Part shown: positions 8,279 to 28,032 of the stretch, one piece after another
Layout of the letters: each line of letters opens with the position of its first letter
Numbering within the stretch: position 1 is the first letter of the stretch
Virus record (IMG/VR): IMGVR_UViG_3300028025_005807
Span: 1 to 29,402 of that record
Source of the DNA: a virus
Lineage: Duplodnaviria; Caudoviricetes
DNA: 29,402 nt
Reading direction: 5' to 3' (one strand)
Notes under the pieces: model-generated
The model's database searches: none
The model's input: only the letters and a program-made list of their open reading frames with translations
What the model was told of the DNA's origin: nothing
Translations under genes and position numbers: made by a program

Positions 8279-8459
8279 AAAAGACTTTTATAAAACCATA
8301 GAAGATTTTTTAAACTGTGACTCAGATCTAAGTTTTTCCAGAGAGTACTTTTGTGACGTAGTTCCCCCAAAAGACTTCTCAGTGCTTCAAAATTTCACAA
8401 CAGAGGAATTGGCTGAAGAACTTTGCAGAAGAACGTCATTGGGCAAGGAATTAAAATGA
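8271..8459 (+). CDS. Small protein with TSLGKELK tail (tail family 7)
   Basis: Likely start ATG 8271 (MDKKDF); ends RTSLGKELK; ATGA overlap with GT9 gene. Confidence 0.65.
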   Translation: MDKKDFYKTIEDFLNCDSDLSFSREYFCDVVPPKDFSVLQNFTTEELAEELCRRTSLGKELK

Positions 8460-9382
8460 TTGGAGACAAAACTATATACTGTTTAAATAGCGCGGCGGTT
8501 GGAGATTTGATTGCTTCAGCTCCGAGTATTAAATTTGCTATTGAGAACTTTCATAAAAAATCCGAGTACTTTGTAGGAATTCACGAACATTTTAAGCCAT
8601 TATTTCCGTTTGTTCCAGAAGATCGTTTTATAGAGGTCAAGGCTGATTACGACAAGTCATTTGCGGTTAGACACTTGAATATGCTTGGAGTTGGAGGAAT
8701 GAATTGTAAGCTCACTCCTTCTAGAATAAAGCTTACAGAATACGCCTCTATTGGGCTTTTAGGCAGAGTTTTGCCGGAGCAACAGCTTAGGTACGTATCT
8801 CTTCCAAAAGTTGATATAAGCCATTTTGGGGTGGATTTTAGCAATTCTGTTATTATCATGACAACTTACAGAGATAAGCAAAGATCTATTCTAGCTTCTG
8901 AAATAGTTAAAATAGCTGAGTATGTGACTGCTAAAGGTCTAACTCCGGTTTATGCCGGAAAGACTGGTGCTATAAGCATTTGGAAAAACAGTCTTGCCAA
9001 AACAGATTTTGAATACCCTGGATTTGGGGTTAATCTAATGGATAAGACAAGTTTACTAGAACTTGCTACAATTATGGGACAAGCAAAAGCTGTCGTCGGA
9101 ATGGACTCTGGACCTATTCATCTAGCGTTTACAACAGAGGTTCCAGTTGTTTGTGGGTTTACTACAGTGGCTCCAGACCTTAGAATTCCCTACAGGGGAT
9201 TGGCTAAAACAGAAGTAGTAACTCCCGATATCTTTTGCAATTTCTGTGAGTCTAACTGGTCTTTGAATTCGTGGAATTTTCAGAAGTGTCCTAGACAAAT
9301 GGAGCTTGCGGAATGTGTTACTAAGATGACATCTGATAAGTTTATAAAAGCTTTAAACAAATTAAATATATTTAAACCCTGA
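8456..9382 (+). CDS. Glycosyltransferase family 9 (heptosyltransferase-like, GT-B fold)
   Basis: AVGDLI, KTSLLELA, VVGMDSGPIHLA, C-terminal CxxC..C; start set at ATG 8456 after AAGGA. Confidence 0.85.
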   Translation: MIGDKTIYCLNSAAVGDLIASAPSIKFAIENFHKKSEYFVGIHEHFKPLFPFVPEDRFIEVKADYDKSFAVRHLNMLGVGGMNCKLTPSRIKLTEYASIGLLGRVLPEQQLRYVSLPKVDISHFGVDFSNSVIIMTTYRDKQRSILASEIVKIAEYVTAKGLTPVYAGKTGAISIWKNSLAKTDFEYPGFGVNLMDKTSLLELATIMGQAKAVVGMDSGPIHLAFTTEVPVVCGFTTVAPDLRIPYRGLAKTEVVTPDIFCNFCESNWSLNSWNFQKCPRQMELAECVTKMTSDKFIKALNKLNIFKP

Positions 9383-15608: not shown

Positions 15609-16388
15609 ATGCGTAAACTTTTAATCCCATTAACTTTATTATGCAGTACGGCATTTGCAAAGCCAGTAGATATTGTATTAACGGAAAGAAATTCAGTTTC
15701 ATTTAATCAAGCTTTTACTAGTGAATACGTTGCTAAAAAACAATTAGAAATCTTTTCTAAAAATAATATGTTAGCTAGATCAGAACCTATTTATCTTGTT
15801 ATGGATACTCCGGGAGGATCAGTCGTAGCTGGATTAAATTTTATTGATAGCCTTAAAAGCCTTAAAAGACCAATTCATACTGTTACTTTATTCGCAGCAT
15901 CTATGGGTTATCAAGTCGTTCAAGAACTTGGAACAAGATATATTACTCCATCAGGGACTCTAATGAGTCATAGAGGGGCTGTATCTGGTATTGGTGGACA
16001 GATTCCTGGAGAGCTTAATTCCAGACTTGGCTATATTCAAGGGCTTTTAGAACAAATGAATAGGAAGGCAGCTTCTAGATTAAAGACCGATGTTGAAGCG
16101 TATAAATCTTCTATCGTTAATGAATTGTGGATTTTTGGTCAACAAGCCGTAGACACTAGAAACGCAGACGCAGTAGCAGATGTAAGATGTGATAAGAAAT
16201 TAGTTGAGGGAAGATATATCCAACAATTTAATACTATCTTTGGTTCTGCAGAAGTGGCGTTTTCTAAATGTCCTCTAATCTCTGGACCTATTGGATTTTC
16301 TTTTTCTAAAGAATTCAAGTCTCAGAATAGAGGAAGCTTTATTAAGAAAGTTCAGTCTAGTAAAAGAAGAATTCATTTAAACTTTTAA
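15609..16388 (+). CDS. clpP: ClpP-like (S14) serine protease with apparent signal peptide
   Basis: DTPGGSV..G, AASMG (Ser), LMSH (His); N-terminus MRKLLIPLTLLCSTAFA. Confidence 0.8.
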   Translation: MRKLLIPLTLLCSTAFAKPVDIVLTERNSVSFNQAFTSEYVAKKQLEIFSKNNMLARSEPIYLVMDTPGGSVVAGLNFIDSLKSLKRPIHTVTLFAASMGYQVVQELGTRYITPSGTLMSHRGAVSGIGGQIPGELNSRLGYIQGLLEQMNRKAASRLKTDVEAYKSSIVNELWIFGQQAVDTRNADAVADVRCDKKLVEGRYIQQFNTIFGSAEVAFSKCPLISGPIGFSFSKEFKSQNRGSFIKKVQSSKRRIHLNF

Positions 16389-17281: not shown

Positions 17282-17466
17282 GCAGCATTAAAGTTAAGAA
17301 AGATGAGCAAACTGGGGAGTGTTATATTGACTTTAATGATATAGCCCACATGTTTGAAGACCCGTCCATTATTGAGTACTATGTGCTAGAAGAAAATGAG
17401 AAAGGTAATATTGTATTAGAATTTTTTGATAAAGACGAAAATCCAATCTACCCAGTTGAAAAATGA
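17278..17466 (+). CDS. Small acidic protein
   Basis: 62 aa, ATGA overlaps at both ends, directly upstream of clpX. Confidence 0.6.
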   Translation: MSSIKVKKDEQTGECYIDFNDIAHMFEDPSIIEYYVLEENEKGNIVLEFFDKDENPIYPVEK

Positions 17467-18389
17467 AAACACCTGAGCAAATTAAAAAAGAATTAGACGA
17501 ATACGTTATTGGTCATGACAAGACTAAAAAAGCCATGTCAGTGGCTGCTTATAACCATTTTAAAAGAATGGGCGGCAGTTCTATAAAAAAATCCAACGTG
17601 CTATTAATTGGACCAACTGGCTGTGGAAAGACTTATATAGTCTCAATATTAGCAAGAATTCTAGGAGTTAGCTTTTTGACAAGCGACGCTACTCAGTTTA
17701 CCTCTGCCGGATATCAAGGACGAAGTGTAGAAGAATTAATCACAGATCTTATCGGTATTTGCGAGGGCGACGAGAAGAGAGCAGCCAAGTCTATTATTTA
17801 CATAGATGAAATTGATAAGCTCAGAAAAAAGTCAATGGACGGAAATCAAGCCGATGTTAACGGTCTTGGAGTTCAACAAGCTCTTTTAAAACTGTTGGAA
17901 GGAAGCGAAGTTCCGTACATTTCTAAGTATTCGCAAAATGGCGAGTACGACAGGAAGATGAATACTAAAGATATTTTATTTATATGCTCAGGAGCTTTTG
18001 TTGGACTTGAGTCCACTTCAATAGCACACCTCACAGACTTTGGAATGATCCCAGAGTTTCTTGGAAGATTCTCGGTCATTACGCAGCTTCAAGAGCTTAA
18101 ATTTGACGACTATAGAAAGATCCTTCGTGACTCTAAGGGGTCTATCCTAAACTCGTTTAAAGAATGGTTTTTGAGCGAAAAAATTGAGCTTGTAGTAGAT
18201 GACAGTGCTATTAATATCATAGCTCAAAAAGCTATAGACAAGGGATTAGGGGCTAGAGGTTTGCACAGCGTTCTGGACGAGGCTTTACTAAATGCTCAGT
18301 TCGAAGCTCCTAGCTTAGCGATTAAACCTAAACAATTTATATTAGACTCTTCGGTGGTACTTAGTGGAAAAACCAAGTGGATTTATTAA
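17463..18389 (+). CDS. clpX: Minimal ClpX-like AAA+ ATPase
   Basis: LDEYVIG, AYNHFKR, KSNVLLIGPTGCGKT, IYIDEIDK, GVQQALLKLLEG, FGMIPEFLGRF, GARGL. Confidence 0.92.
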   Translation: MKTPEQIKKELDEYVIGHDKTKKAMSVAAYNHFKRMGGSSIKKSNVLLIGPTGCGKTYIVSILARILGVSFLTSDATQFTSAGYQGRSVEELITDLIGICEGDEKRAAKSIIYIDEIDKLRKKSMDGNQADVNGLGVQQALLKLLEGSEVPYISKYSQNGEYDRKMNTKDILFICSGAFVGLESTSIAHLTDFGMIPEFLGRFSVITQLQELKFDDYRKILRDSKGSILNSFKEWFLSEKIELVVDDSAINIIAQKAIDKGLGARGLHSVLDEALLNAQFEAPSLAIKPKQFILDSSVVLSGKTKWIY

Positions 18390-23946: not shown

Positions 23947-24915
23947 TTATCCTATATTCTCGTATGGATTTTTTCCAGGTTGCCAGTTTACAGCATAGTT
24001 AGTATTTTGAGGTTGGGAAGTCGCTGCTCCTGCTACTGTACTTCCTGCAGCAGCTCCTGCAGGGCCTCCGATCATAGCTCCTCCGATTGTAGCTCCGGCT
24101 TTAATTAAACCACCAACCAGAGCTTGCTGTGCTCCTTGAGCTGCCGCTGCTTGCTGTTGCATTTGTTGTGCTAAAGAGGATTGCGCTCCAGTAACTCCCG
24201 TAGCTTTCGCCATTTGATTCTGGAATTGTTGCTGAATAAGACCTTTATTATACATCTCTTGCTGATTTTTTGTTGCAGCTTGTTGATTAGCAATGCTTTG
24301 TCTTTGTGCTAAATTTTGAGCAGAAACACCCTGTCTGTTCTGTGCATTAAACTGAGCAATAGCGTCTGCTGCAGATGCTTTCTGTCCAGCTAATGCTAAT
24401 TGTTGTTGAGACATTTGAGAAGCCATACTTCCTTGTTGTCCTAAAGCTGCCATACGAGCTTGTTGAGCTTGTGCTGCAGTTTGTAAAGCAATATCTTTTC
24501 CAGACTGACCTGCTCCTTGTACAGCCTGAGCTTGTAAAGCTAATCTCTGACCTTGACCAAGAGTTGGATCTTCTCTAAGCTGTTGCAGTCTAGCTTGTTC
24601 AGCTCCCGCCACTCTTCCTAATCCCTGCTCTATGTTTAGTCTAGATTGTGCATCTAGACCACCAGCTTCTGCAACTCCTGTTATGCCTTCTAAAGCAGCC
24701 ATTTGTGCAGCCTGTAATCTTGGGTCCATTTCAACTTGTTCAAGACGAGATGGGCCTAATGCTTCAGCTTCTAATAATCCCACAAGTTCTGGGCTTTGTA
24801 AAGCAATTTGTTGAGCTTCAATTGTTGGAATTCCAATAGCTTCTAGACGAGCAATGTTATCTCGCATAAGCCTATTGGCTTGTTTCATTTCGCTTTTTCC
24901 AGCATTCTTACTCAT
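23947..24915 (-). CDS. Putative DNA ejection/pilot protein
   Basis: Q/A-rich with GATIGGAMIGGPAGAAAG glycine zipper, typical of podovirus ejection proteins. Confidence 0.65.
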   Translation of the reverse strand: MSKNAGKSEMKQANRLMRDNIARLEAIGIPTIEAQQIALQSPELVGLLEAEALGPSRLEQVEMDPRLQAAQMAALEGITGVAEAGGLDAQSRLNIEQGLGRVAGAEQARLQQLREDPTLGQGQRLALQAQAVQGAGQSGKDIALQTAAQAQQARMAALGQQGSMASQMSQQQLALAGQKASAADAIAQFNAQNRQGVSAQNLAQRQSIANQQAATKNQQEMYNKGLIQQQFQNQMAKATGVTGAQSSLAQQMQQQAAAAQGAQQALVGGLIKAGATIGGAMIGGPAGAAAGSTVAGAATSQPQNTNYAVNWQPGKNPYENIG

Positions 24916-25264
24916 ATCTCACACCTCTATTATATACAATTTGATACACATCTTCGTAACTATGTTGCATTCCAAATAACCGACATAAATGAGCCGTTCT
25001 TTGTTGCGTAAACTCAGATGTACTTTTACTTATTTGAGCAGAAATTGTCTTACATTTTTCTTGTCTAGCAATTTCTTCTATTTTAATCATTAAATCTCTC
25101 CACTTATCATTTCCTCTAACTTGTGGAGCAACATACATTTCTATAACTTTTAAGCATTTAACTGGACCAACTTCCTGTAGCTCATAAGTTACAAAGCTAT
25201 CTTCGTCCTCAAGAGTTTCCCAGTTTACAGTTTCTTTTACAAACTGTGCGTATAAACTAGCCAC
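24908..25264 (-). CDS. GNAT-fold acetyltransferase-like protein
   Basis: MYVAPQVRGN...IEEIARQEKC resembles the acetyl-CoA binding motif; GTG start. Confidence 0.7.
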   Translation of the reverse strand: MASLYAQFVKETVNWETLEDEDSFVTYELQEVGPVKCLKVIEMYVAPQVRGNDKWRDLMIKIEEIARQEKCKTISAQISKSTSEFTQQRTAHLCRLFGMQHSYEDVYQIVYNRGVRYE

Positions 25265-27209
25265 GATATTTTTCCTGATTAGCTAAAATAGCGGCTAAAG
25301 CAGCTTGTCTTGCTTTTGTTTCTTCAGTTTCTCCAACTAAAGCTCTATTATAAAAACCAGCATTTTGTAATTCTTTTTCTACATTTCTTTGCAGGTCTTC
25401 CTGCGCCAATCTTTTTGCAGTATTTTTAGCATATTTAGAAGACGGACCTCCTCCTCCAAAAATACTAGTACCAAGTAGATTGTCAGCAGTATTCATTAAA
25501 CCACCAGTAACGTCTAATCCTAGTGAACGAAGTCCAGCAGTTATTCCCATAGAAGATAAGTCAGCGTAGGCATAACCAGCTTTTTTAGCTAAGGTACTAT
25601 CATCTGTATAAGGAGAGATGGATGCTTCTGGTGTAAATCTAGGAGTTAGTGACTGTTCCCAGATATTTTCTAACGTGCTTGGATCTACATCTGTAACTAC
25701 ATCACCTCTAGCTGTAGAACCTAACTGCTTATTAAAATCATACCCCGCTCTTTCAAGGACATCTTTTAAATTAGCTGTTTCTTCTGCATAATACTTTTTA
25801 CCAGTAGTTTTATGTTTTTTCTTTCCATACCCTGTTATATCTTGGGTAGATGCTGTTTCTTTAAACCTTTCTTCTTGTGCTGTTAATAAATCTTTTATTG
25901 CTTGTTTGTTAATAGCATCTGCAGCAGTTTGTGTTCCAGCTTTTTCTAAATCTGTATATAATAAACCTTTTTGAAGTTGTTTAGATACATCTGAGGCAGC
26001 AAGTTGTTGCAATGCTAATTGACGACTAAGTTCATTTTTAGAAATTAATTTAGCAGCTTCTGCTTTATTCGTTTGTACAATTTGTTCTGGAGTTAAATTA
26101 TAAAATCCCGTTCCGGCTGTTACTCCTAATAAATCAGCTTCTTGCTGACTTAGTTGTTTTCCAGATTTCAACGCCTCTTTAAAATACTCTGGAAGTTTTT
26201 CCCAATTATCTTGGATTTGCTTTATTCTTTCATTAGCCGCATCTTCTTCAGCTTTTCTAGCTTCTGTAAAAGCTGTTCTAGCTCCAGATCTTACTTGCTC
26301 AATTGCTGCAGCTCTTTGCGCCGCTTCGTTGGCAGATAAATTCTGAGCTTGCTGAAGTTGTTGTTGGATATTTCCAGCTTGCTGAGCTTTTTGTTGGAGC
26401 TGCTCTACACCTTGCTGAGAAGTGTTTAAAAGCAATGCGTCAAGCTTAGATTGTCCTCTTGAATAATCCCTGTTTCTTGAAAAGATATCTCTAAGAAGTT
26501 GTGCTCTTCCTTCCACAGATTGCGCTTGTTGAACAGCCTGTTGAGCTGTCTGTGCTTTTCTAGCAGCTTGCTCGTAAAGTCCAGCTTGTTGTAAAGATTC
26601 TGGGCCTTGATATTGTGCGTTAATAATTTCAGCAAAACGCTGTTGTTGTTCTGGTGTAAAATATTGTTGAGTTTGAGCAGGAGCTGTTGGTTGAGATTCT
26701 GCAGGTTTTGATTCAGTTTGTTGCTGTGTTGGTTGAGCTGGTTGCGGAGCTTGATAAGTAACTCCTCTAGCAGCAGCTAAAATATTTGCAGTTTGTTCTT
26801 GTGCAGCCCTTTTAGCATCTTCTTCATTTTGTCCAGCTTGAAACAAAGAACCACTTCCAGCTTTCATTTTTTGACCAAAAGTTTGCTGAGCTTGCTGGAT
26901 TCCTTTCTGAGCTTGTCCAGCAACATTCTGCACACGCTGAGTTGCAGCTTGAGCAACTTTACCACCGCCTTGAGCGGCTTGTAAATAACTTTTAAGATTG
27001 GCGAAAGTTCCTGTGCCAGCTTTTTGCTGTTTTGGCATTGAAACTTGAGGAGCTTTTGGAGCAGAGGAAGCTCCGATTTGAGCTTGACCAGCACCTTCTA
27101 CTTGAGGTTTTTGTTCTTGTGGCTGAGCTTGACCTGCTTGAGGCTGTTGACCTAAAGCTTGATTAAGACCCTGACCTTTTTGTTCTTCTTCATCTCTAAT
27201 AGTTGCCAT
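25257..27209 (-). CDS. Q/A-rich putative virion protein
   Basis: 650 aa low-complexity helical protein; GAGG SD. Confidence 0.6.
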   Translation of the reverse strand: MATIRDEEEQKGQGLNQALGQQPQAGQAQPQEQKPQVEGAGQAQIGASSAPKAPQVSMPKQQKAGTGTFANLKSYLQAAQGGGKVAQAATQRVQNVAGQAQKGIQQAQQTFGQKMKAGSGSLFQAGQNEEDAKRAAQEQTANILAAARGVTYQAPQPAQPTQQQTESKPAESQPTAPAQTQQYFTPEQQQRFAEIINAQYQGPESLQQAGLYEQAARKAQTAQQAVQQAQSVEGRAQLLRDIFSRNRDYSRGQSKLDALLLNTSQQGVEQLQQKAQQAGNIQQQLQQAQNLSANEAAQRAAAIEQVRSGARTAFTEARKAEEDAANERIKQIQDNWEKLPEYFKEALKSGKQLSQQEADLLGVTAGTGFYNLTPEQIVQTNKAEAAKLISKNELSRQLALQQLAASDVSKQLQKGLLYTDLEKAGTQTAADAINKQAIKDLLTAQEERFKETASTQDITGYGKKKHKTTGKKYYAEETANLKDVLERAGYDFNKQLGSTARGDVVTDVDPSTLENIWEQSLTPRFTPEASISPYTDDSTLAKKAGYAYADLSSMGITAGLRSLGLDVTGGLMNTADNLLGTSIFGGGGPSSKYAKNTAKRLAQEDLQRNVEKELQNAGFYNRALVGETEETKARQAALAAILANQEKYRG

Positions 27210-27284
27210 AGCTATTTAACCTCTGTAATATAAGGGTGTTAAATCACTATTTTAGTGTTTAATATACTATCAATAAGTTATGGG

Positions 27285-27313
27285 TTGTTAACTGAATAAA
27301 AATGTGTTATTCT
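27285..27313 (+). promoter_or_regulatory. Putative sigma70-type promoter, antisense to the virion genes
   Basis: TTGTTA-N17-TATTCT with extended -10 TG. Confidence 0.5.
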
Positions 27314-27319
27314 AGTAAG

Positions 27320-27590
27320 GAAGTTTAAAAACTTCACTTTTTGCTCTTTTGGACCGTGAAATAGAGGATTTACAAGCGAATCCGATATATGACCCGGCGT
27401 AGGAAACGAAATAGTCAACTGGGTGTCGCAAAGCCACTAAGTACCCAGCGGAAAGCCAGAGAGTTAAGCACAGAGACTTGTGAACTTGGATTTGTGTTAA
27501 AAGTTAAATTTAGGTTAACAGCCCAAGCCTTATCCCCAAATAGCTGAAAGCACATTAAGGATATGGTCTAGCAAGAAGGAGTTTTTTGGC
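27320..27590 (+). ncRNA. Candidate structured ncRNA of unknown class
   Basis: Gap with no listed ORF and raised GC; 5' and 3' ends pair over ~22 bp and enclose at least 6 hairpins. Confidence 0.65.
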
Positions 27591-27621
27591 TCTATATAGG
27601 CGAAGCTATGTCAAAAGTTAT

Positions 27622-28032
27622 TTATTGAATTATTTCTAGTACTAGCCTATACTTAGATCCAGCAACAAATCCAATTCCATAATTAACCTTAACAACTCCA
27701 GTGCCTTGTAAAGTCCAATCAATGTAAGGAGCTTGTGTAAACTTAACAGCTGAGTTGGTTATGTTTTGAGCCTTGCCTATGTGAATCATAGAAACATAAG
27801 ACAAGTTAGTGGATATAGTTGAATTTCCAATTGGTTTACCAGCTGAGTCAAAAGAAATGTCAATGCTAACTTTAGCTCTAGCTAAGTTATCAAAATCAAG
27901 CTGGCCATTAACCACTTGGTAAATTTCATCAGCAAATTCATTATAAGAGCCAGCTATGCCCTCAACAACTGTCTGAGACTCTTTGTCATAATCTTCTGGG
28001 ATAATTCTTCGGATATCACTGAGCTTTGGCAT
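27622..28032 (-). CDS. Putative tail-associated protein
   Basis: 136 aa, helical N-terminus then beta-rich; follows the tail gene. Confidence 0.55.
   Translation of the reverse strand: MPKLSDIRRIIPEDYDKESQTVVEGIAGSYNEFADEIYQVVNGQLDFDNLARAKVSIDISFDSAGKPIGNSTISTNLSYVSMIHIGKAQNITNSAVKFTQAPYIDWTLQGTGVVKVNYGIGFVAGSKYRLVLEIIQ

Follow-up and report, generated by a model that had tools for sequence, protein, structure and literature searches.

A conserved, covarying RNA predicted in a virion-gene gap of a tailed phage and an apparently undescribed family of structured phage RNAs

The 412-nt gap (27210–27621) between the genes for a 136-aa and a 650-aa protein in a tailed-phage fragment appears to hold a conserved, covarying and uncatalogued structured RNA on the plus strand, a reading well supported by covariation and by the lack of Rfam matches. 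This fragment of 29.4 kb (29,402 nucleotides, estimated as 35% complete) is the whole stretch of DNA that was analysed and is called the window below. Alignment A5 and its consensus fold predict a non-coding RNA gene of ~290 nt (27320..27612, plus strand), with ends inferred from a promoter-like site and from the last conserved hairpin; it is antisense to both flanking virion genes and overlaps neither open reading frame (ORF). We propose that it is a separately transcribed phage gene whose folded product likely works in trans by luring away a conserved host factor, a decoy reading to which we assign a probability of roughly 0.4. Its core recurs in other phages, and the resulting family of structured phage RNAs looks real and is apparently undescribed. 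Few classes of large structured phage RNAs are known and most have no function assigned; the present class is of this loosely known kind. Its core is small and well defined, with ~20 nearly invariant bases, a covarying pseudoknot, and natural paralogues and replacements, and it is therefore directly testable without a cultured host.

Plus-strand genes of the window encode a helicase, a DNA polymerase, an Erf-like protein, an endolysin and a ClpP-like protease. From 20468 the minus strand carries a block of genes that probably encode virion proteins. The gap, which the preliminary description had called non-coding, lies between two minus-strand ORFs of this block: a Q/A-rich 650-aa protein, likely virion-internal (25257..27209, divergent from the RNA), and a 136-aa virion-module protein (27622..28032, convergent with it). 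Neither matched anything in PHROG or Pfam. Near-complete relatives of this phage measure 80–85 kb, the packaging gene of the clade is a large terminase (PHROG 2, E 1.8e-29), and the sole cultured link is a Silvanigrella aquatica prophage with 5–7 proteins in common and without a copy of the RNA. Alongside the ClpP-like protease the phage encodes a ClpX-like ATPase (the two genes lie at 15609–16388 and 17463–18389), and the ClpP-like protein has more than 700 metagenome relatives. Genes resembling a family 9 glycosyltransferase and an acetyltransferase lie at 8423–9382 and 24908–25264, the acetyltransferase-like one inside the virion block.

Homologous loci were gathered through the 136-aa protein and not through the RNA. 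A homologue of the RNA occupied the same gap in 17 of the 23 loci tallied, some of which are near-duplicates. Core identity to the window was 90–94% in 12 of 13 aligned relatives and 55% in L026. Because the adjacent gene is only 67–75% identical in these relatives, the core is probably under strong selection. Under the consensus structure, 97.3% of the cells of A5 (14 sequences) were paired, compared with 33–46% in a slid-partner control that leans in favour of the structure, as this was predicted from A5 itself. The preliminary description had asked for covariation among homologues: two-sided changes were found in 27 of the 73 consensus pairs, a count reached by none of 500 shuffles, and the covariation score was likewise reached by 0 of 500 shuffles in each alignment tested. 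It had also asked for folding scores on both strands. Single-sequence folding of the window gave no signal above shuffles (z −1.02 on the plus and −1.76 on the minus strand), and the core and the full length each stood at chance level (z −0.93). Structural support for the predicted RNA is wholly comparative. A 52-aa ORF inside the gap is not conserved: it is cut to 15–36 codons in 13 homologues, and an ATG start is present in 5 of 14 rows.

The predicted fold consists of a core of ~125 nt followed by a lineage-variable 3′ domain of ~150 nt. A 5′ hairpin of variable sequence, H0 (27320..27335), comes first; 45 of its 56 cells are paired in A5, and its stems change together. The next strand, P0 (27336..27342), pairs with 27499–27504 and encloses the core together with P6 (97.9% of cells paired, two pairs with two-sided change). 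P1 (27343..27352 with 27456–27464) closes the core and is 100% paired in A5; in alignment A8, all 12 of its pairs show two-sided change. Within P1 lie an A/AANG internal loop, P2, a UKAAA strand and the hairpins P3, P4 and P5, which are arranged as a four-way junction with a loop-loop pseudoknot. On the 5′ side, an invariant unpaired A and the P2 strand CCG (27353..27356, of which 27354–56 pair with 27449–51) lead into the junction strand UGAAAUAG (27357..27364), which in the consensus line reads U-G/U-AAA in 23 of 23 cores and which we take to be T-loop-like. P3 (27366..27383) is a variable hairpin with two-sided change in three pairs. P4 (27390..27417) shows two-sided change in three of four stem pairs. 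P5 (27419..27448) has a conserved C-G pair closing its loop and an A-rich loop end. The stretch 27449..27464 contains the P2 3′ strand, the AANG internal-loop strand (27452–55) and the P1 3′ strand, with AGCG.AA.G invariant in the 23 cores. P6 (27468..27497), a further variable hairpin with two-sided change in six of seven pairs, is missing in L026 and in the L204/L206 group. The 3′ domain continues with hairpins P7 and P8 (27513..27563, consensus fold, the register of P8 being tentative) and ends in P9 with an inner stem (27564..27608; 96% and 94% of cells paired), which the L204/L206 group has too. An alternative RCC/GGY pairing of 27527–29 with 27565–67 could form in 13 of 14 sequences and would be in competition with P9, so that the predicted 3′ domain might adopt two states.

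The P4 and P5 loops pair with each other (27396–98 with 27433–35), a contact that the preliminary description had missed. The pairing is GGC/GCC in the window and in L013, and GGU/ACC in 11 others, with the pair 27398–27433 being C-G in 2 and U-A in 11 of the 14 sequences. P4 and P5 are 0–1 nt apart.

In proposing a multi-stem RNA in this gap, the preliminary description had pointed to a real structured element and had drawn part of its fold wrongly. Its stems at 27366–83, 27390–417, 27419–48 and CACAGA/UUUGUG (27468–97) are kept in homologues with two-sided changes. Its three-segment closing helix did not hold up: 71.9% of cells are paired, 245 of 500 shuffles attain its count of four two-sided pairs, and a +1 slide scores equally. 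The innermost segment, GGACC/GGUCU, is compatible in 85.7% of cells with one A-C break in L204, and might still form as an alternative pairing, as most rows are compatible with it. In the proposed GUUAA/UUAAC stem, two of the five pairs hold in just one of 14 sequences. Nor does the ~260-nt extent fit: the RNA has its 5′ hairpin at 27320–35, a core closed by 27343–52/27456–64, and a 3′ hairpin that reaches 27608, past the end previously given.

A 15-nt motif from the 5′ junction recovered two further loci, both of which had the 3′-junction motif, which had not been part of the query, 75–83 nt downstream. In a gapped pattern scan of viral sequences, 22 of 34 matches were judged real and 12 chance. 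A longer-range scan gave 4 real matches out of 29, and these four members, which were outside the input of model R1, scored 40–52 bits against at most 15.9 for the remaining matches of that scan; chance pattern matches elsewhere reached at most 25.6 bits. When P2 was left free in the pattern, six of 51 matches were members already known and none was new. Members found by pattern are biased towards the typed motifs. Eight further copies (seven distinct) were found by the model alone and fit none of the patterns. Their alignment was fitted to the model, which biases its counts in favour of the structure. In it, the base pairs are preserved, those of the pseudoknot among them, P1 and P5 covary, the junction strand is UGAAA or UUAAA, and P2 opens with a C-G, G-C or A-U pair, apart from one mismatch. 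As background, one of 49 unrelated viral records passed E ≤ 0.001, with a pattern match inside an ORF. None of 34 GTDB pattern matches to the commonest variant looked real; the highest score among six of these was 18.7 bits. An 11-nt motif, AUUCCUGUGCC, recurs ~100–110 nt past the core in the 3′ domains of L192, L193 and L195, three otherwise dissimilar members. Many others have a stem that ends in GCC.

Over the 23 cores compared, the invariant bases are A.CGU.AAA and AGCG.AA.G, and core identity across lineages is 33–91% (median 46%). The P4–P5 loop pairing has a different sequence in each lineage. Its summed longest Watson-Crick run was 74 compared with 49.6 ± 4.1 when loops were dealt among cores, and 0 of 20,000 permutations were as high; the loop windows had been picked after the pairs were seen by eye, relatedness was left uncorrected, and P4 was mis-picked in three rows, which lowers the score. 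An earlier test on 13 members gave 38 vs. 27.1. Loop matches in L195 and L207 are weak, and those in the model-only copies comprise 5, 5 and 4 pairs.

The core recurs in phage groups with 0–2 proteins in common with the clade of the window, and G008, G023, G024 and G025 have 0–1 proteins in common with G001–G003. No protein family was common to all carriers, the widest clusters covering 7 of the 14 records compared; sharing was scored by BLASTP at E ≤ 1e-5, a threshold that remote homology may escape. Its neighbours vary between virion genes, small early-type genes, recombination genes and the pre-terminase region, with the core in sense, antisense or divergent orientation. The earlier placement in a virion module is correct for the window and does not extend to the other gene neighbourhoods in which other phages carry the same core. 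Two copies were present in 9 of 26 records, and the four near-complete genomes to which the flanking protein led (G001–G004) each have at least one copy. More long non-coding, stem-rich stretches occur at an early-region site (G002:C1 ~620–1250; G003:C1 8465–8850; G001:C1 4550–4800), and these include long 3′ extensions of second copies.

The strand proposed in the preliminary description is borne out by two asymmetries. Across 55 pairs in 14 sequences, 84 cells are of G-U type on the plus strand and three of A-C type. Stems capped by a GNRA loop over three closing pairs number eight on the RNA strand and none on the other in the 23 cores. Since the RNA is known here from its sequence alone, a single-stranded DNA structure serving as origin or packaging signal might be considered, and a structured origin had been named before as an alternative. 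The two strand biases argue against it, as do the covarying pseudoknot, the presence of two copies per genome, and a GC skew with no switch beyond that of gene orientation, and we regard such a DNA element as very improbable.

The motif matches no RNA family in the collections searched, in line with the earlier impression that it was not a known one. Rfam 15 (4227 models) gave no match at E ≤ 1 for the window and for seven loci; on 27200–27630 only three weak unrelated matches appeared (E 1.1–7.6), and none lay over the cores of divergent members. Searching 50,697 GenBank phages by blastn returned nothing meaningful for the gap of the window, for L195, L206 or L207, or for RNA2 (see below), and no sequencing run was listed as a holder of the RNA. 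No description of the motif was found in the literature. Intergenic regions of IMG/VR have been screened before (PMC10690425), and the motif is absent from four supplementary files of that study, whose candidates may nevertheless include this RNA; the accessible part of 10.64898/2026.09.15.751765 does not mention phages. A tRNA or tmRNA, which had already been set aside by inspection, is not indicated either: ARAGORN found no such gene, and the internal ORF is not conserved. The window has no tRNA genes, and among 13 carriers scanned only G010 (L397–L400) has them, four in number (Ile, Leu, Asn, Tyr).

A group I intron was likewise rejected; the preliminary description had not recognised an intron either. 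The alignment to RF00028 is weak (12.6 bits against a cut-off of 50, E 1.1). The window alone carries both S- and R-like strings; the S-like string varies in 13 homologues and the R-like one lies in the variable P6, and the covarying helices do not follow the P3–P7 order. The RNA is not inside a gene, the ORFs on both sides are intact on the opposite strand, and the position is empty in G020 and G010. Resemblances to kink-turns, pistol, RNase P, the L1 stalk and cobalamin RNAs, judged by eye, come down to matching short strings and were dropped. A CsrA-type GGA sponge seems unlikely, with the GGA strings lying in stems or junctions. A retron or DRT-type RNA with a linked reverse transcriptase was rejected as well, PF00078 being found in 0 of 5 near-complete carriers, mimicry of a host reverse-transcriptase RNA aside.

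Small ribozyme classes usually have few invariant bases in a pseudoknotted junction, a variable periphery and no fixed gene neighbour. The present RNA has few invariant unpaired bases in a covarying pseudoknotted junction, variable peripheral stems and no fixed neighbour, so that the invariant junction bases could form the active site of a ribozyme that cleaves itself or acts on another RNA. No known ribozyme model matches, however, the weak group I alignment depends on the S-like string of the window, and the core is placed at the 5′ end of what is predicted to be a free transcript, which has no evident substrate and no apparent reason to be processed. We consider a ribozyme unlikely.

The raiA motif RNA (RF03072) resembles the present RNA in size and in that its function is not known, and it has a junction T-loop directly after a P1 strand that our T-loop-like strand may parallel, according to the accessible part of 10.1101/2024.12.08.627333. 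In our RNA, the U-G/U-AAA strand follows P2 in all 23 cores, a comparison made by sequence alone. However, the cellular raiA RNA contains two pseudoknots, whereas here P1 closes the 5′ core only and the pseudoknot is a loop-loop pair, and none of five carrier records matched the raiA model at E ≤ 10.

GOLLD, which we take to be RF02032, and ROOL are ~660 to >800 nt long and often lie near tRNA islands, whereas our RNA has ~290 nt and tRNA genes occur in 1 of 13 carriers; neither a GOLLD or ROOL model match nor a length above 600 nt was found. In the available text of 10.1101/2024.12.08.627333, they share with it that they are phage-encoded, intergenic and multi-stemmed, with kissing loops and one conserved and one variable domain. 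Like the present core, the phi29 pRNA has a junction domain of ~120 nt with a pair of complementary loops and a closing helix that bears a bulge, as seen in the accessible portions of PMC3753930 and PMC3479190. Two complementary loops on a junction are present here as the P4–P5 pairing. Its junction is three-way, whereas ours is four-way, with two paralogues per genome and no Rfam match. Instead of a phi29-type packaging ATPase, the clade has the large terminase, and no packaging proteins were seen to be shared across carrier groups.

These likenesses bear on a second reading, in which the P4 loop of one molecule pairs with the P5 loop of another and RNA alone builds up a ring or cage, which might scaffold the procapsid like phi29 pRNA or be free like ROOL and GOLLD. 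Covariation cannot separate intra- from intermolecular loop pairing, and a covarying kissing loop in ROOL that was first read as tertiary proved to be intermolecular (10.1101/2024.12.08.627333). The complementary loops in a ~120-nt 5′ domain with a separate 3′ domain resemble the interlocking-loop plan of pRNA, as given in the available part of PMC3753930, the 0–1 nt spacing of P4 and P5 could point the loops apart, and the L204 and L206 copies lie just ahead of the terminase region. Against a ring stand the Rfam result, with just the three weak unrelated matches at E up to 10, the conventional large terminase (PHROG 2) of the clade and the unrelated protein sets of the carriers. Furthermore, many of the kissing runs are of just 2–3 pairs, and paralogues within one genome differ in loop sequence. 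Taken together, such an assembly seems rather improbable.

We favour a trans-acting decoy. The RNA is probably not cis-acting, given that its copies differ both in their neighbours and in their orientation to them (antisense, sense or divergent), and its behaviour as a folded module independent of neighbouring genes and of detectable phage proteins points to a partner that is host-encoded or the RNA itself. The distribution favours a host-directed over a packaging role. Since carriers share no phage protein, the partner of the decoy would be host-encoded, e.g. an RNA-binding defence nuclease or regulator. The pseudoknot and the T-loop-like strand would pack the core compactly and display a few invariant unpaired bases to it; these bases may, alternatively, serve the RNA's own fold only. 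All steps beyond the secondary structure we infer. The known phage RNA decoys pseudo-ToxI and the Racrs are non-coding and target a host factor in trans (PMC13670838, in the part available). They are short copies of a host RNA repeat, whereas the present RNA is a large unique fold, for which no resemblance to a host RNA was found in Rfam or among the 34 GTDB pattern matches. The presence of a copy in all four of G001–G004 would also fit an essential role; the RNA2-bearing G006 and G007 are 50% and 38% complete.

What the RNA soaks up could also be a small molecule, for instance a nucleotide that signals immunity, which would make the RNA a counterpart of the phage sponge proteins. Riboswitch aptamers (TPP, purine, cobalamin) have T-loops, kissing loops and few invariant bases, and the present RNA combines a T-loop-like junction strand, hairpin loops that pair and few invariant bases with no expression platform and no fixed downstream gene. 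Phage proteins that act as sponges for immune signals are established. The literature searched held no natural trans-acting small-molecule RNA sponge of phages, however, there is no metabolic gene context, and the conserved 3′ domain would be left unexplained, all of which makes an aptamer sponge quite unlikely. If it is a decoy, an aptamer, a ribozyme or a ring, the RNA would extend the ways in which phages use RNA alone.

A decoy of this kind would be transcribed from its own promoter, sigma70-like here and late-promoter-like for one second copy. The candidate in the window (27285..27313, plus strand) has a −35 element at 27285–90, a 17-nt spacer and a −10 element at 27308–13 with TG. It has 8 of 12 matches, a score equalled in 234 of 300 shuffles and hence not significant alone. 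Relatives match better, and in seven slot members the −10 ends 36–39 nt ahead of the core. Sigma70-like sites with 10–12 of 12 matches precede 7 of 25 members; five divergent ones (L195, L197, L207, L217 and L310) have at best 5–7 of 12 matches in the 100 nt upstream.

On the minus strand, a motif resembling a phage late promoter (27226..27244) precedes the 650-aa gene. The same motif lies ahead of this gene in G020 and G010, two more distant genomes with an empty slot and an unchanged gene order, and the motif therefore appears to predate insertion of the RNA. In G020 it occurs seven times, always intergenic and on one strand, ahead of six ORFs (five closely), and from this we infer that it is a late promoter. 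The second RNA copy of G020 has the motif 27 nt upstream.

The slot between the two virion genes is exchangeable. It held this RNA in 17 of 23 loci and other elements in six, and from this occupancy, together with its emptiness in G020 and G010, the predicted RNA behaves like an accessory gene. RNA2, a multi-stem element of ~320 nt, takes the slot in four loci (L002:3408–3735 and L003:3417–3745, both on the minus strand, L032 and L033); it comes in two sequence types that are 82% identical, with two-sided change in 9 of 84 predicted pairs among three sequences, and matched neither Rfam nor GenBank phages. RNA3 (L041:1915–2265, minus strand) is stem-rich and ~350 nt long (z −1.90, a single example). 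A short element of ~120 nt (L043:1910–2030, minus strand) gave no folding signal (z 0.22, again a single example) and is preceded by a near-consensus sigma70-like promoter. By eye, each alternative element sits behind promoter-like sequence. The slot thereby points to three further candidate RNA genes; RNA2, RNA3 and RNA4 fall outside the class by both models (best 10.4 bits with R1 and 9.9 with R2).

An RNA antisense within a virion operon could tune that late operon in cis by convergent transcription, or it could be a passenger spread by homing endonucleases, and the RNA2 of L002 is indeed accompanied by a DUF559-like endonuclease gene. However, there is no overlap between the predicted RNA and either flanking ORF, the core also stands in sense and divergent contexts, the RNA is more conserved than the genes around it, and no reverse transcriptase was found in five of five near-complete carriers. 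Both variants have a slim chance of being correct. Of the trans-acting possibilities, a broader version can be drawn, in which an undescribed modular fold supplies interchangeable RNA genes to unrelated phages, some with an early and a late copy, that assemble into rings through their covarying loops or soak up a host immune signal or protein. On this view, at least four RNA genes would take turns in the virion slot, forming a cassette that parallels, in RNA, the variable anti-defence protein cassettes. This wider picture is speculative, and we would expect it to fail rather than to hold.

Further features of the slot and its surroundings were seen in single loci or genomes. Seen in L002 only, the DUF559-like gene (L002:3751–4290, minus strand) encodes a zinc ribbon, and RNA2 follows shortly downstream on that strand. 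In RNA3, the GAAA-looped 5′ hairpin is similar to the corresponding one in the main RNA as found in L013. Defined as a TAACA core followed by TATA (G020, L404 and L407), the late-promoter-like motif stands ahead of virion-side genes of this clade and is intergenic in seven of seven occurrences in G020 and in five of six in G010; the same pattern occurs three times in G002 and is absent from G001.
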